In this document: in pieces, positions 1,465-28,523 of the stretch
Position numbering within the stretch: the stretch's first letter is position 1
Layout: every line of letters starts with the position of its first letter
Origin: an uncultured archaeon
Lineage (GTDB): Archaea; Thermoplasmatota; Poseidoniia; MGIII; CAYLMJ01
Reading direction: 5' to 3'
Length of the DNA stretch: 37,194 bases
Assembly (NCBI GenBank): GCA_964434315.1
Contig: CAYSUX010000002.1
Coordinates: 1-37,194 of the forward strand
The notes under the pieces: model-generated
The model's input: the letters and a program-made list of their open reading frames with translations, nothing else
Databases searched by the model: none
What the model was told of the DNA's origin: nothing
Translations under genes and position numbers: made by a program

Positions 1465-2910
1465 ATGCGCGTATCAGTCATGGGCACCGGCTACGTTGGC
1501 CTGGTTTCCGGCGTGGCCCTGGCCGAGCATGGCCATCAGGTGGTCTGCCTGGATGTCATTCCCGAGAAGATCGAGACCCTGAACAGGGGCGTCAGTCCCA
1601 TCTTCGAGCCCGGCCTCGATGAGCTACTGGACCGCCATGTGACCGCCGGGACCCTCAAGGGTTCGCTGGATATCGAAACCGAGATCGCCGCCTCGGATAT
1701 CACCTTCATCTGCGTGGGCACCCCCAGCCGACCCGACGGCTCCATCGATCTGGCCTACATCGAGCAGGCCAGCGCCAGTGTCGGTCGCGCCCTGGCCAAG
1801 AAGGCTCCGGATTCCTATCACACCGTTGTCGTCAAATCCACCGTGGTGCCGTTGACCACCGAGACCGTCGTGGGTCCGGCCGTGACCGAAGCCTCGGGTC
1901 GTGTTCCGGGGAAGAACCTGGGTCTGGTGATGAACCCCGAGTTCCTGAAAGAAGGGGCCGCCATCGAAGATGCCATGAACCCGGACCGTATCGTCATCGG
2001 CGCCGGCGACGAGCACGCCCGCAAGATAATGGATGAGCTCTATTCCCGTTTCCAATGCCCGGTGCTCCATACCGATCCGCGTACCGCCGAGTACATCAAG
2101 TACGCCTCCAACGCCTTTCTGGCGGTCAAGATAAGCTTCGCCAACGAGCTGGCTAACGCCGCGGAGGCCTGGGGCATCGACTGGCAGATCGTGGCCGAAG
2201 GTATGGGCCTTGACTCCCGTATCAGCCACAAGTTCCTGGTCCCGGGGGTCGGTTTCGGTGGCTCCTGCTTTCCCAAGGATGTCCGGGCCATCCAGGCGAA
2301 GGCCAATAGTGACGGGCATCCCTCCCGGGTCCTGGCTGCTGCCCTGGAAGTAAACGAGGTCCAGCCGGCCCGGGCTCTTGAGCTGGCTCTGGAAGCCCTG
2401 GCCGCCGCTACTGCCCCCGCCTCCTCCACCGCCCTGGTCGAGGCCGCCGCCCCGGACCCTAGCGCCACCACCGCTGACGCCACCGGCCTCAAAGGTTGCA
2501 AGGTGGCCCTGCTGGGTCTGGCCTTCAAGCCCGATACCGACGATGTGCGAGAGACCCGGGCCCTGCCCATCGCCCAGGCCCTGACCGCGGCCGGCGCCCG
2601 GGTCACGGCCCACGATGTGGAGGGCACCGAGAACTTCAAGGCCCTGGTCAGGGAGAAACTGGCAACAGATGGAAAGGCGGGCGAACTACCCCTCCGGTAC
2701 ACCGACGACCCCGAGGTCGCCCTCAAGGACGCAGAAGTGGCCATCGTCCAGGTCCCTTGGACCATCTACCGTGAACTGCCTGCCGTCAGATGGGCCGAGC
2801 TGATGTCCGGACCCAGGGCCGTCATCGACTGTCGCCGGGGACTCGATTCCCAGGCTTTCGAGGCCGCCGGGCTGGTGTATCGGGCGATCGGGTTCGGGCG
2901 GCCTTGTTAG
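1465..2910 (+). CDS. ugd: UDP-glucose/GDP-mannose dehydrogenase family protein (UDP-glucose 6-dehydrogenase-like) with an Ala/Thr/Ser-rich insert
   Basis: N-terminal Rossmann motif VMGTGYVGLVSG, catalytic-Cys motif GFGGSCFPKDV, and C-terminal GLAFKPDTDDVRE. An extra low-complexity linker (LAAATAPASSTALVEAAAPDPSATTADA) precedes the C-terminal domain. Confidence 0.88.
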   Translation: MRVSVMGTGYVGLVSGVALAEHGHQVVCLDVIPEKIETLNRGVSPIFEPGLDELLDRHVTAGTLKGSLDIETEIAASDITFICVGTPSRPDGSIDLAYIEQASASVGRALAKKAPDSYHTVVVKSTVVPLTTETVVGPAVTEASGRVPGKNLGLVMNPEFLKEGAAIEDAMNPDRIVIGAGDEHARKIMDELYSRFQCPVLHTDPRTAEYIKYASNAFLAVKISFANELANAAEAWGIDWQIVAEGMGLDSRISHKFLVPGVGFGGSCFPKDVRAIQAKANSDGHPSRVLAAALEVNEVQPARALELALEALAAATAPASSTALVEAAAPDPSATTADATGLKGCKVALLGLAFKPDTDDVRETRALPIAQALTAAGARVTAHDVEGTENFKALVREKLATDGKAGELPLRYTDDPEVALKDAEVAIVQVPWTIYRELPAVRWAELMSGPRAVIDCRRGLDSQAFEAAGLVYRAIGFGRPC

Positions 2911-3022
2911 CCCGGCTTTCCTACGGCCGGGTGGTGGTGGGGGCTCGAGGGTACACTGCTTTCCCTTTCAATTCTAGGTAATCTACATTCATCAGTATTA
3001 ATCTGCGGCTTTTTTTGCAATT

Positions 3023-3053
3023 AGACACGGATTTCACAGATTACACGGATTTT
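3023..3053 (+). repeat. array A: three phased 9-bp units (CACGGATTT CACAGATTA CACGGATTT)
   Basis: Read directly: agaCACGGATTTCACAGATTACACGGATTTt. It is a near reverse complement of array C at 4144-4172. Confidence 0.85.
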
Positions 3054-3120
3054 ATTATTTATGAGGGGAGGATTGCAAATCTAGCTTACGCTGACCTGTT
3101 TGAGGTTCTTATGGAAAATA

Positions 3121-3183
3121 AGACACGGATTTCATAGATTTAATTAAGAAAAATCTGTGAAATCAGTATGTTAATCCGTGTCT
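3121..3183. repeat. array B/B': imperfect palindrome built from forward and reverse 9-bp units
   Basis: AGACACGGATTTCATAGATTT (3121-3141), a 9-nt spacer, AAATCTGTGAAATC, a 9-nt insert, then ATCCGTGTCT (to 3183). Confidence 0.8.
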
Positions 3184-3475
3184 ATAATTCTGAAGCCTTA
3201 GCGCGTCTGCTCTGTCCAGTGGCGGCAAGCCTGCTCCGCCCAGAATAGATTAATCGGGACATGTCCTGTAAATACCTTTTAAGGCCAAGCCGAGGAGACT
3301 AGCGGAGCTTGGTAGCAATGAAAACTCCAAGCACGAAGCACGACCAAGCCATCTATAGCTCCTCCTCACAAAGACAGCTACACGGCCCTGGCGGCTTGAC
3401 CGCGTTGGGCAGCGGGGCTCACGAAGAATCCCGTGATGTTTGACACTGAAGTTTGATGAAAGTCATCCCAGCTAT

Positions 3476-4072
3476 TCATAATTGGCCCGACTCGTCTAAT
3501 TTTTCTACTAATAAACTAGCTAGAACCAAATGATGTAGGGCTCTTTCAGGACTAATAACAATGTTTTCATGTGCTTTTGGGTTTCGGATACCACTCATTG
3601 CCCCCGCAAAGAGATACATATAACCTCGCTGAATAGATTGGCCAGTTTCTGTAGTAAGGTCGTCAAGTACAATTATTGGTTTTTCAGGTTTAAAAGCTGA
3701 AAACATCAAGTCCTGACCATCCTTCTCTACTCCAGTCTTGTTACGATATAATCTCTTTACAATCATATTAATTTCTTTAAAAGATGCCTCAACTGAATCT
3801 GCGAATTCACCATTAGTGAAACGTTTTTTTGACACATCACAAACTTTCGTGTGTATTATATCCCAAACACTATTAAACTGCACATCTATTGAGTTCTTTG
3901 CGTCAATTTTTTCAATGTTTAAATTCCAAATTCGTCCGTCAGTTAAGAAATTGAAACTAGTCTCACACTTAACGCATACTCTTTGCTCTGCGATCTTTAT
4001 TCTAAGATCATTCGAGTTTTTGTAGAATCCCTGTGGAGTTCCACATTCTCGGCAATACGCTAATAATAGCAT
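3476..4072 (-). CDS. zinc-ribbon + HEPN-domain protein (TIGR02391 / Hypoth_Ymh-type), predicted RNase/toxin-like
   Basis: N-terminal CRECG...CVKCE (4 Cys). The C-terminal GAMSGIRNPKAHENIVISPERALHHLVLASLLVEKLD contains the R-x4-H HEPN motif in the sequence context of the TIGR02391 family. AT-rich codon usage. SD-like GAAGGTGG lies upstream of the ATG. Confidence 0.65.
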   Translation of the reverse strand: MLLLAYCRECGTPQGFYKNSNDLRIKIAEQRVCVKCETSFNFLTDGRIWNLNIEKIDAKNSIDVQFNSVWDIIHTKVCDVSKKRFTNGEFADSVEASFKEINMIVKRLYRNKTGVEKDGQDLMFSAFKPEKPIIVLDDLTTETGQSIQRGYMYLFAGAMSGIRNPKAHENIVISPERALHHLVLASLLVEKLDESGQL

Positions 4073-4143
4073 AGAGTTACCACCTTCATCCCTTAAAATC
4101 TTCTATGATAACGTTATAATATCTTCGATTTCATTAACACTAT

Positions 4144-4172
4144 AATCTGTGTAATCCGTGAAATCCGTGTCT
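4144..4172 (-). repeat. array C: three reverse-orientation 9-bp units
   Basis: AATCTGTGTAATCCGTGAAATCCGTGTCT, an inverted partner of array A. It lies ~70 bp upstream of the HEPN gene start. Confidence 0.85.
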
Positions 4173-4235
4173 AATTTCCCACTTACACACCAGTAAACAT
4201 AGTGTTTCAAGATTCAATGTCATTAATTTAACCGC

Positions 4236-4247
4236 GAAATCCGTGTC
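4236..4247 (-). repeat. array D: single reverse unit (GAAATCCGTGTC) just 3' of the GxxExxY gene
   Basis: Read directly. It lies 6 nt from the stop codon at 4253-4255. Confidence 0.6.
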
Positions 4248-4252
4248 AAATA

Positions 4253-4624
4253 TTAATCTAATATTTTCCTCCTCACCTCTACGGAAGGACCAAAGTTAAT
4301 CAGCAATCCTATTTCAATCCCGGTGGCTTTAAGATAATTAACCAGTTGAACCTCATGGATTTCAATTAACTGTCTGACGGCCTTTAATTCCAAAATAACC
4401 ATATCCTCAACGACAATATCAGCGATGTAATCTCCAACAACATGGCCTTTGTACTTTACAATGACTGGCTTTTCCTTTTCAGCCTTCAATCCTATAGCAT
4501 TCAATTCGATACAAAGTGCATTTTGATATACTTTTTCTAGAAAACCATAACCCAATTCATTGTGAACAGTGAAAGCTGTCCCGATTATCTTACCAGTCAA
4601 ATCCTCATGTTTTAAATCACCCAT
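4253..4624 (-). CDS. GxxExxY protein (PD-(D/E)XK nuclease superfamily, TIGR04256-like)
   Basis: Has the GFLEKVY (GxxExxY) motif and the nuclease core D-x12-ELK (DYIADIVVEDMVILELKAV). About 123 aa, typical for the family. SD-like GGAGGG lies upstream. Confidence 0.8.
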   Translation of the reverse strand: MGDLKHEDLTGKIIGTAFTVHNELGYGFLEKVYQNALCIELNAIGLKAEKEKPVIVKYKGHVVGDYIADIVVEDMVILELKAVRQLIEIHEVQLVNYLKATGIEIGLLINFGPSVEVRRKILD

Positions 4625-4937
4625 TTGCTACCCTCCACTTCAATCCGCATCTAATTCACTCCGAGATAGCCTTCGCTGGTCCGGGCACCCCTCTTATCAC
4701 TCCATCCATCAGCCACGTCAAGGGTCAATTCAGGCGTGCCGGGAACCGCAACCGGTTCGGTGGTGTTCGTAGTGGCGCCCATCGTGGTCTGGGCGCGGTA
4801 GTCGGGCATACGAGGCTGAGGAGCTGAAGAGGTCAGGGGTCAAAGGTGTTTTGGATAGCACCCTCGAAAGTTCACGATAGCTATTGCCTCTCAAGTTGGC
4901 TGATGGCAGAACAGGCGTGAGGGTGCCTTGGAATGTA

Positions 4938-5006
4938 AGACACAGATTTCACAGATGATATGGATTCTGGTTAAATATAATCTGTGAAATCCGTGAAATC
5001 CGTGTC
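4938..5006. repeat. array E/E': imperfect palindrome of forward (2) and reverse (3) 9-bp units
   Basis: AGACACAGATTTCACAGAT (4938-4956), a 22-nt spacer, then AATCTGTGAAATCCGTGAAATCCGTGTC (4979-5006). Confidence 0.85.
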
Positions 5007-5099
5007 GAAATTTCTTATTTTGTAACCGATCGACATGGCTACTCTACTCACCGGTCAGTCCAGTTTCTCCAGGTCCCGGAAGGCCTGGTACGACGGACC

Positions 5100-5648
5100 T
5101 CACTCCCATCGATGGTGGGCCGGGTGGCCCTCCTCCACCGCCACGAACAGACCTTCGCCGGTGGCCGTTATCTCGCCTTCGGCCTCCACTGCCATCTCCA
5201 CCTTCACCTTCGGGTCATCGATGCTGACGACCTTACTGGTGATACGCAAAGGCGGGCCGTAGGGCGTTGGCCTCAGGAATCGGACAGAATAATGAGCTGT
5301 GACAGTGCTGGGCATCTCGGCGTCCGGCGAATCTGTCAGGCCCCGGGCGTCCAGCAGGGCCACGGCGGCGGTCCAGTTGCCATGACAATCCAGCAGCACC
5401 CCCAGGATACCACCGTTGATGGTATCGCCAAATGCCTTATGGTGAGCCGCGGGTTGAAAATCGCAATTGAGACCCGTTCCTTCCTTTAAATATGGTTCGT
5501 CGGGAAAGCGATGACTCTTGATCCGGAGGCCCAGTTCATTGGCGGGTCCGCAACCAAAGCAGATCCCGTCGGGACCGTATCGGTCCTGCATTGACGCCTT
5601 TGTGATCGATGTCTCTTTGATCATGGACTGGAAAGATGATACCCCCAT
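5100..5648 (-). CDS. PaaI-family (hotdog-fold) thioesterase
   Basis: Has CFGCGPANELGL near the N-terminus and INGGILGVLLDCHG (the hGG...D hotdog motif). Confidence 0.7.
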   Translation of the reverse strand: MGVSSFQSMIKETSITKASMQDRYGPDGICFGCGPANELGLRIKSHRFPDEPYLKEGTGLNCDFQPAAHHKAFGDTINGGILGVLLDCHGNWTAAVALLDARGLTDSPDAEMPSTVTAHYSVRFLRPTPYGPPLRITSKVVSIDDPKVKVEMAVEAEGEITATGEGLFVAVEEGHPAHHRWE

Positions 5649-27380: not shown

Positions 27381-27647
27381 CCGTTGAATCCTGGTGTGGC
27401 GCTCACTGCCCCTATCGCCAGGCCTCGGATGCCATTGCCCGCAGGCAGGTCGAAGGTCCGGGCATGGTGGACGGAACGAAGGACAGCAGCAGCCGAGGGC
27501 GGTGTCGGAACCCTGACCGTATTTCTGGCCATAGCCGCCGAGGTCTTGGGCTGGGCATAATCACAATTAGGAACTCGATAATTATCAGTGATAATCAGTG
27601 GGTTCAAAAATCTTATAAAGTAGATATCATTAACTAATTAAGAAAGG

Positions 27648-27745
27648 TGGTTCGACCAGATCAGCACCCGCACCCTTACCTCCACGTCGTGTTATCGGCT
27701 TCCGGTTCATCGAGTGCGTTTTCACGGTCCAATCTGGTCGAACCA
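27648..27745. repeat. 14-bp perfect inverted repeat (TGGTTCGACCAGAT / ATCTGGTCGAACCA) enclosing 70 nt
   Basis: Read directly. It could be a MITE-like element or the closing stem of a small RNA. Confidence 0.5.
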
Positions 27746-28142
27746 AATCAGGTATTACGGGCAGGCCTAAAAAGGCTTGCCGCGATGATTGTCATAGATG
27801 ATATTCAATCGCAGAGGATACCCTCCCGCACCGATGATATGGAAGTAATCACTAACGAGTAATTACATAAAGAAAATGGAAGATTAATGCTCTCGATTTG
27901 GTGGGTTTTATCTCGACTATATATAGGGGTATTATTCCTTCAAATGAAACACTTTAAAAACAGTACATATGTCGGTGGTACCTAAAATTGCTAATTTGCA
28001 TCCGATTTGACTCGTCCAGGCCCGAAGCGTTCGTTTCAGAATATATATTTCATATGCAAGTTCAAGACCTGAATTGAACAGTTTGGCATAGTATCCAAGT
28101 CATAACAAAAACGAACCGGGAACGCCTAGGGCTTTGTCATGG

Positions 28143-28281
28143 CCGGTAGAGTGCATTCTCACTGAACCGACACAGAAAGCTTTTCAAAGCAATAGCACTA
28201 AGGTAAAGCACCGGGGGTTCGAACCCTCGTGGCGAGACGCCGACGGGTTGAAAGCCCGGCGCATTTCCACTCTACCACGGC
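28143..28281. other. tRNA-like imperfect palindrome (possible decayed tRNA / att remnant), not a functional tRNA call
   Basis: GGTAGAGTG arms at 28146-28154 and, reverse-complemented, at 28269-28277. Central GGGGGTTCGAACCCTC T-arm-like hairpin. The minus strand has an anticodon-arm-like GGG-CTTTCAA-CCC. No 7-bp acceptor or D-arm can be drawn. Confidence 0.25.
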
Positions 28282-28523
28282 ATTTGCATTTGAAGCCCTT
28301 CAATCGATAGAGCTGTCTTCTGGACCATGCTTTGTTCTTCATATTGCGGTTCCCCCATGGGCAGGCAAATACACAAAGCGGGATAATAAAGCCCCACCGG
28401 CAGACCGCCATACCTGCTATTTTATATACCATGTCCAACACCAATACGATTTCAGTCACCAAAACCTTATTTAACTAACCGGGCTCCACCGCCTCCATTC
28501 CGTTCTTTCGGAGCTGACCCGAA

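Follow-up and report, generated by a model that had tools for sequence, protein, structure and literature searches.

The stretch of DNA analysed here (hereafter, the window) comprises positions 1-37,194 of contig CAYSUX010000002.1 from an uncultured archaeon of the Poseidoniia (GenBank assembly GCA_964434315.1). It carries an insertion of ~2.19 kb (2911-5099) between the convergent genes for a UDP-glucose dehydrogenase (1465-2910, plus strand) and a PaaI-like thioesterase (5100-5648, minus strand). Two genes lie on the minus strand of this island, one encoding a GxxExxY protein of 123 amino acids (4253-4624; TIGR04256, PF13366/PDDEXK_3) and the other a HEPN-like protein of the Hypoth_Ymh/TIGR02391 type (3476-4072; PF09509, 91.6 bits; TIGR02391, 71.4 bits), hereafter Ymh. 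Around them stand inverted arrays of a phased 9-bp unit, CACRGATTW, and it is these arrays, their association with GxxExxY genes and their distribution among other genomes that are described below.

The 9-bp unit is confined to the island. All 14 exact matches to CACRGATTW in the window fall within 3026-5004, whereas dinucleotide shuffles yielded on average 0.83 matches when the whole window was shuffled (maximum 5) and 0.09 when the island alone was shuffled (maximum 2). A two-unit motif allowing up to three mismatches was matched ten times, every time inside the island, against an expectation of 0.21, and neither the exact-unit scan nor the two-unit mismatch scan found an array of at least two units elsewhere in the window. 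The outer end of each array reads GA-CACGGATT, which gives every array a direction. Array A (3024-3052, plus strand, outer end to the left) consists of three 9-bp units, GA-CACGGATTT-CACAGATTA-CACGGATTT; its inverted partner, array C (4143-4171, minus strand), also has three, which read CACGGATTT-CACGGATTA-CACAGATTA on the minus strand. A and C form 46-nt arms that are 87% complementary and lie 1066 nt apart with the Ymh gene between them. Array D (4228-4247, minus strand), which directly follows the stop codon of the GxxExxY gene, retains a single intact unit (4237-4245) and one degenerate unit.

The remaining arrays are paired into two gene-less palindromic elements. Element B/B′ (3122-3182) is a 61-bp imperfect palindrome composed of arm B (3122-3141, plus strand) and arm B′ (3151-3182, minus strand), the latter with a 3-nt insertion within its middle unit; folded as RNA it reaches -23.9 kcal/mol (z -7.0), and its architecture matches that of 55 close plus/minus array pairs from other genomes. 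Element E/E′ (4939-5006) is a 68-bp imperfect palindrome situated upstream of the GxxExxY gene, with decayed units in E (4939-4967, plus strand) and three intact units in E′ (4978-5006, minus strand). Both short palindromes fold far better than shuffled sequences as RNA (-20 to -28 kcal/mol, z -5.2 to -7.0) and also when folded as DNA. Their stems are 25-30 bp long and AU-rich, and the A/T runs on either side belong to the palindrome itself. A TGGRAA-like motif is found just outside arrays B, C and E and resembles the spacer of the back-to-back archaeal arrays described below.

Much of this anatomy had been described in an earlier reading of the bare sequence (hereafter, the original prediction), whose phased 9-bp arrays, two long imperfect palindromes, near reverse-complementary arrays around the HEPN-like gene and absence of multi-unit arrays from the rest of the 37 kb are all borne out, with block coordinates correct to within 1-4 nt. 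The original prediction also had D and E flanking the GxxExxY gene; their positions are as described, but both arrays are directed away from the gene, and a canonical inward-facing pair around it would have A or B as its left member and E′ as its right member. Read in the direction of the genes, the pieces are arranged as E′/E hairpin, GC-rich segment, GxxExxY, D, C, Ymh, GC-rich segment, B′/B hairpin and A. The layout of a complete hairpin, a GxxExxY gene and a reverse array recurs at loci collected from other genomes (L123, L044, L126, L128, L132 and L133) and in Desulfobacterales copies.

To examine the distribution of the arrays, the 19-mer GACACGGATTTCACRGATT was searched exactly in a collection with one genome per species (1.19e12 positions). 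It occurs in over 119 genome stretches from about ten phyla, where chance alone would give ~9. Among the matches listed, most hosts are Verrucomicrobiota, and the others include Bacteroidota, Chloroflexota, Thermodesulfobacteriota, Azospirillum, Ignavibacteria, Acidobacteriota, Planctomycetota, Poribacteria and archaea of the Methanosarcinales, ANME (anaerobic methanotrophic archaea) and Methanoperedens. The majority of copies lack a gene and are imperfect palindromes with the layout GACACGGATTn CACGGATTnn CACGGATT - loop - inverse, which occupy intergenic DNA near unrelated housekeeping genes and come from over 100 species; the comparison with termini of miniature inverted-repeat transposable elements (MITEs) made in the original prediction is thus matched by gene-less palindromes of wide occurrence. 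Neighbouring arrays separated by at most 700 bp are strongly biased in orientation, with 66 plus/minus pairs compared to 5 minus/plus, 6 plus/plus and 3 minus/minus. A GxxExxY gene fills ~8 of the 119 exact-motif matches listed. Among these matches, a metagenome-assembled genome (MAG) has 2-3 exact-motif loci, and one such genome, bin84o, holds both gene-carrying and gene-less copies (L024, L110 and L112).

The motif is also present in viruses, where it was found in 24 contig stretches of the IMG/VR database. These belong to tailed phages whose genes include those for portal, capsid and terminase proteins, and each contig holds 3-5 or more palindromes (up to 5 or more exact-motif loci) located in short gaps between structural genes, directly following stop codons and preceding start codons. 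A BLAST search of cultured phages and plasmids with the consensus hairpin gave no match, which a low-complexity filter may partly explain, and a search for phage relatives lacking the hairpin gave back the same contigs only. The palindrome-rich phage contigs (L214-L237; for example L217, L218 and L232) include Mu-like proteins. Full-text literature searches on the motif, on GxxExxY, on PDDEXK_3/PF13366/TIGR04256 and on intervening-sequence (IVS) proteins turned up no account of the arrays; curators' family descriptions may hold similar remarks. The element family is very widespread and, apparently, undescribed.

We then asked which genes accompany the arrays. Among small open reading frames (ORFs) adjoining arrays (n = 117), PDDEXK_3 was the sole recurrent cassette-like family, and tblastn revealed GxxExxY genes enclosed closely by an upstream forward arm and a downstream reverse arm at L015, L024, L035, L044, L102, L105 and L123. 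For the reverse test, metagenome contigs were scanned with a GxxExxY alignment, yielding 80 loci, among which 73 genes had enough flanking sequence. The best inverted-repeat score between the two flanks had a median of 17.5 for these 73 genes and 7.0 for 116 control ORFs from the same loci (p=1.9e-21, Mann-Whitney test), with 73% of the GxxExxY genes lying above the 95th percentile of the controls. At 60 of the 80 loci, at least two CACGGATT-like units were present within 200 bp, and most of the others possess analogous inverted arrays built from variant units (ACAGGATT, CGCAGAT/CGCTGAT, CACTGATT and CACAGAC). Successive units are most often 9 bp (127 cases) or 10 bp (79 cases) apart, regardless of whether the variant is CACGGATT, CGCAGAT, ACAGGATT or CACAGAGGA. 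Protein sub-family and unit variant share a weak lineage signal.

The gene-carrying form has a compact geometry: the median arm is 33 bp long, and the median gap is 27 nt between the 5′ arm and the ATG and 8 nt between the stop codon and the 3′ arm. A full element measures ~0.45-0.5 kb. GxxExxY genes are wedged co-directionally into conserved operons, as between fabD and fabG in Sphingomonas parapaucimobilis (L241 1501-1929); in Bacteroides finegoldii, a GxxExxY gene (L240 1486-1860) flanked by inverted 9-bp units of the CACAGAGGA type lies between radA and the gene for a FAD-dependent protein. On plasmids the gene is rare (8 of 72,556). One GxxExxY sub-family, with a C-terminus ending in KRRIFGYD (L129, L131, L134, L135 and L141), has forward arrays upstream only; some of its members are tandem genes, with TTAGACACGGATTTACACAGATTAACACTGTT before each and no reverse arm.

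The protein encoded in the window is a clear member of its family, scoring 143.3 bits against TIGR04256 (cut-off 35) and 144 bits against PF13366 (cut-off 22), with zero matches to the transposase family Y1_Tnp. Residues E30, D69, E79 and K81 are invariant across 35 GxxExxY sequences. An AlphaFold2 model reached a mean confidence (pLDDT) of 92.7, and its nearest structures according to Foldseek were Cas4 SSO0001, nucleases of the lambda-exonuclease type and the similar-sized Holliday-junction resolvase Hjc, with TM-scores of just 0.45-0.57; sequence searches found no solved structure for any relative. The PD-(D/E)XK catalytic residues are all in place and the predicted nuclease fold is confident; the protein is a minimal PD-(D/E)XK nuclease lacking a separate DNA-binding domain. 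The only survey found to cover PDDEXK_3 describes its function as unknown and its phylogeny as one with multiple transfers between bacteria and archaea (PMC3424549).

The Ymh gene behaves differently. Among 1.5 Mb of related loci, arrays adjoin a Ymh gene at this locus only, and no flanking repeats were found in the contexts of three Ymh homologues (51-55% identity) from other archaea. The original prediction had suggested that each island gene is an independently mobilisable cassette and had named GxxExxY and HEPN genes as families to look for beside the motif; GxxExxY is the recurrent partner, Ymh is not, and we rejected Ymh as a cassette. Ymh is probably a passenger rather than recurrent cargo. 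The island further contains two GC-rich segments of non-coding appearance and host-like composition (3185-3475 and 4625-4935), the second with its own 24-nt inverted repeat (4706-4729/4883-4906). Neither segment showed similarity to the collected loci by blastn or tblastx, and both are absent from syntenic relatives. The island is a composite and probably nested insertion made up of several array pieces, the passenger Ymh and two GC-rich fragments.

That the block as a whole is an insertion follows from its relatives. In relatives L204 and L205, whose thioesterase is 80% identical, the flanking genes share 16 bp, and in L212 they lie 3 bp apart. Because these genes abut in relatives that lack the block, the block in its entirety (2911-5099) has been inserted in this lineage. 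The thioesterase homologues are labelled Poseidoniales/Poseidoniaceae (marine group II archaea) by their sources. In a composition profile, the block at 2950-5030 has 35-48% GC and the rest of the window ~60%, and within the insertion stretches of 35-46% GC alternate with the GC-rich segments; by its base composition, the low GC of the island in a 60% GC host argues for a foreign origin. Contigs whose GxxExxY protein is identical or 98% identical represent the same population (99.4-99.97% identity) and are all filled. Comparison with the relatives, which are ~77% identical, revealed no convincing duplication at the island borders. At these borders (window 2904-2910/5096-5100 compared to L204 5997-6016), both flanking genes have altered C-terminal ends, such as GFGRPC* in the window versus GFGRPHSQR*. 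The window contains a second dip in GC (42-48%) of ~1.1 kb at 27400-28500, without a convincing ORF, around a tRNA-Glu(TTC) gene (28205-28285); it has one perfect 14-nt inverted repeat (27648-27661/27732-27745) and zero 9-bp units.

To determine what is conserved within the arms, mismatches between the two arms of an element were examined. In 65 hairpins found via one arm, the other arm keeps 88-98% of the unit cores but merely 49% of the inter-unit spacer. In 57 gene-carrying elements, mismatches on the sense strand comprise 59 G·U and 73 A·C pairs in addition to 233 transversion mismatches, and thus show no wobble bias. The conservation of the cores, the absence of wobble bias, the 9-10-bp phasing and the use of one core across phyla argue for recognition of the units by a sequence-specific factor, rather than for simple pairing of RNA or DNA into a stem.

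The two arms of an element nonetheless change in step. Similarity across the arms of one element exceeded similarity to the opposite arm of its nearest relative in 44 cases versus 13 (p=2e-6, Wilcoxon test), and copies from gut Bacteroides display concerted changes in both arms. This co-evolution fits a single shared binding protein, homogenisation of the arms or a requirement for pairing. Among human-gut contigs (L169, L174, L177 and L186 compared to L181), the insertion site is common within and between related species, unit number is two or three on either arm within species, and CGCGGATTa is replaced by CACGGATTt on both arms between species. Internal deletions were also observed: between the arms of L105 only the N- and C-terminal ends of the gene are left, and L020 has a 3′ remnant, so gene-less forms can arise from gene-carrying ones via internal deletion.

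We interpret the arrays as foldback-type terminal inverted repeats composed of phased protein-recognition units, belonging to a selfish element that resembles the REPIN/RAYT system (REP doublets forming hairpins, and REP-associated tyrosine transposases, where REP stands for repetitive extragenic palindromic sequence) and whose full form carries a GxxExxY gene; we place the probability of this reading at roughly 50%. The anatomy, the link with the GxxExxY gene, the breadth of the distribution and the status of the island as an insertion are shown by the data; movement of individual units and the identity of the protein that binds and cleaves them are inferred. Each arm comprises 2-4 tandem recognition units of 9-10 bp (GA-CACGGATT-n in the window), with the GACAC end outermost. 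A full-size element consists of a forward arm, the GxxExxY gene and a reverse arm, and gene-less forms such as 3122-3182 and 4939-5006 would be foldback or MITE-like derivatives reduced to the two arms. A sequence-specific protein, most likely the GxxExxY nuclease acting both in cis and in trans, would bind the phased units on both arms, pair or fold the arms, and cut at or near them. The element may then be copied or moved without target-site duplication, by homing, by recombinational repair or by processing of a hairpin or cruciform. In a broader and more tentative form, which we consider possible though short of probable, GxxExxY proteins would be the nucleases or recombinases of an unrecognised class of foldback-type elements in bacteria, archaea and tailed phages, the 9-10-bp units (core CRCnGAT) would be their recognition sites, and the gene-less palindromes would be the counterpart of REPINs across domains of life, with a PD-(D/E)XK rather than an HUH enzyme maintaining them.

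Several observations weigh against this interpretation. At the locus itself, the relatives with an empty site are only ~77% identical at the nucleotide level, such that the junctions of the island are not precisely readable, and no clean pair of filled and empty sites was found for any single element. Target-site duplications were sought in 120 elements (offsets 0-4, k=2-8), with counts equal to those of shuffled partners. Copies are found at the same position in related species of gut Bacteroides and of Desulfobacterales, which indicates that many are old and stable. Moreover, no GxxExxY gene is present in the hairpin-rich phage contigs, and the CACGGAT unit is common to proteins that are only ~40% identical, so that the binder could differ from the encoded protein. 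Finally, a nuclease domain of 123 amino acids without an additional DNA-binding domain is small for a recombinase.

The same observations must be weighed under other explanations. The arrays could be operator or 'stoperator'-type sites, coated by GxxExxY itself or by a host or phage repressor, such that the enclosed gene is repressed or insulated from the operon in which it sits and nothing moves; in phages, they would mark off one gene's transcription from the next. The original prediction had likewise named an operator or iteron array for a DNA-binding protein as an alternative, and this is still a serious competitor. Conserved unit cores with free spacers and 9-10-bp phasing do have the look of protein sites, the arrays abut start and stop codons, and GxxExxY is often found inside housekeeping operons (within fabD-fabG or downstream of radA) where insulation would matter. 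The GxxExxY sub-family that has forward arrays upstream only, and the phage copies that fill the intergenic gaps of structural operons, would be accommodated as well. We nevertheless consider this explanation somewhat unlikely: most copies are gene-less and stand beside unrelated housekeeping genes, in over 100 species, and neither this, nor the strict inward orientation, nor the deleted gene remnants between arms, nor the presence of the same 19-mer in archaea, bacteria and phages despite their different transcription machineries is explained by it. Intervening sequences in 23S rRNA are excised, and the arms could similarly pair in the transcript, either as a hairpin or as a stem around the ORF, to be cut by an enzyme of the RNase III type or to serve as a terminator or stabiliser, thereby excising or insulating a selfish ORF. 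Strong folding (z -5 to -7), arms of one element that stay in step (spacers included in the Bacteroides copies) and positions between co-directional genes, right after stops and before starts, favour such a mechanism. An origin in transcript pairing is unlikely, however, because a stem needs neither tandem 9-10-bp units nor a core shared across phyla and because Rfam has no matching family (none at gathering thresholds, and at permissive settings only a chance-level bantam match, E=0.34); selection for RNA pairing itself was rejected given that G·U mismatches are not in excess and the spacer is unconstrained (49% matched, versus 88-98% for the cores).

Alternatively, the palindromes could be pre-existing dispersed repeats that serve as landing pads, with GxxExxY a free-standing gene of the homing-endonuclease type that cuts the centre of the palindrome and is copied in, which would make the arrays its target rather than its ends. 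The gene always lies in the 'loop' between the arms, gene-less copies far outnumber filled ones (~8 of 119 exact-motif matches listed are filled), target-site duplications are absent and the predicted fold is of Hjc-like size, all of which would suit a homing gene. Deletion derivatives show, though, that a part of the empty forms, at the least, came from filled ones, arm and unit variants track the lineage of the enclosed gene, and the spread of the palindromes across phyla is left unexplained, and we regard this possibility as quite improbable. The original prediction had likened the arrays to integron attC sites bounding mobilisable gene cassettes, and the sites are indeed imperfect palindromes that border the genes of a small, defence-type island. 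The comparison fails on several counts and is highly improbable: among the ORFs of the window that were scanned, neither an integrase nor a transposase turned up, and no integrase (including a tyrosine recombinase) among neighbouring gene calls; the ends read GACACGG...CCGTGTC (GACACGGATT...AATCCGTGTC), and the GTTRRRY/RYYYAAC boxes are absent; the arrays are inverted on both sides of the gene rather than forming a single 3′ site; primary sequence instead of structure is conserved across phyla; and Ymh is not a recurrent cassette. Two further candidates were discarded, namely a classic cut-and-paste MITE, given the absence of target-site duplications in the 120 elements, and plasmid iterons, since the units are 9-10 bp long instead of direct repeats of ~17-22 bp, the arrays are inverted, a rep gene is absent and the sites are chromosomal.

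Additional array architectures were observed among the exact-motif loci. In an Ignavibacteria MAG (L011 340-735), there are four near-identical 123-bp tandem repeats, in each of which a GC-rich hairpin (GTCATCCCCGC...GCGGGGATCC) comes after the 19-mer, an architecture unlike that of the palindromes. In Verrucomicrobiota (L010, L012, L030, L040, L042, L046, L067 and L117), CACGGATT palindromes are nested within outer inverted arrays of a second unit type that is CACGAAT- or CACGGAA-like, for example 'CATTCGTGTCCATTCGTGTTCATTCGTGG'. Methanosarcinales/ANME copies (L072 896-968, L085 267-338 and L095) are back-to-back minus/plus arrays with an A-rich spacer of ~18 bp (…AATCCGTGTCTGGAAAAATAAAAAGACACGGATTT…), which may be junctions of adjacent elements. 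In Azospirillum (L007, L033, L047, L070, L073, L088, L100, L104, L107 and L114), the 19-mer recurs after 2-5 nt and has a conserved ACAAGAT(C/G) in front of it, the loops are long and GC-rich, and L102 is the sole copy with a GxxExxY gene.

If the foldback-element interpretation is correct, it would provide the first functional handle on GxxExxY/PDDEXK_3, a family with thousands of members, and would define a new class of repeats that breaks assemblies and resides inside conserved operons and phage structural modules. An identical 19-mer in two domains of life and in viruses is unusual for a dispersed repeat. Should the nuclease recognise short phased units and process folded DNA, it would represent a new minimal DNA-manipulating enzyme with a defined and programmable-looking target; should the arrays instead be regulatory, they would constitute a portable insulator that functions from Bacteroides to archaea.

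The elements share features with several known systems. Free-standing homing endonuclease genes and ORF-bearing 23S rRNA IVSs likewise place a tiny nuclease or ORF of unknown function between conserved host genes or within a stem, with inverted repeats flanking the ORF and no promoter space of its own; the elements described here differ in having no defined homing site and no intron or IVS context, and in their arrays of tandem units. Integron gene cassettes also have imperfect palindromes, the attC sites, adjoining small accessory genes, but the present elements combine a two-sided inverted bracket with conservation of sequence rather than structure, and have neither an integrase nor the R and L core sites. 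Like MITEs derived from terminal inverted repeats, the gene-less copies are short, palindromic, non-coding and intergenic, have ends in common with a gene-carrying parent and are linked to it by internal-deletion intermediates (L105 and L020), whereas they show no target-site duplication in 120 elements and have a parent without a DDE or other known transposase.

Eukaryotic Foldback elements (Drosophila FB, Tetris; PMC4079207) provide a close structural parallel, with long terminal inverted repeats that are composed of short tandem sub-repeats in variable number, many copies that consist of the two arms only and some that carry a coding 'loop'. Foldback elements are, however, eukaryotic and much larger, use transposases of the Mutator-like (MULE) type and usually generate target-site duplications, and there is no homology of sequence or protein between the two. 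The nearest analogue is the REPIN/RAYT system (PMC3116915, PMC3337134), which is similar in that a single small gene lies between inverted copies of a short repeat, intergenic DNA also harbours scattered inverted doublets (hairpins) of the repeat without a gene, target-site duplications are absent and many copies seem to be old and vertically inherited. The enzymes differ, as RAYTs are HUH/Y1 transposases of the IS200/IS605 type and the elements described here carry a PD-(D/E)XK nuclease; so do the arms, which are tandem arrays of 9-10-bp units in place of the one palindromic REP of a REPIN. Finally, whereas REPs are lineage-specific, the unit described here is shared across phyla and domains, and its copies extend to tailed phages.

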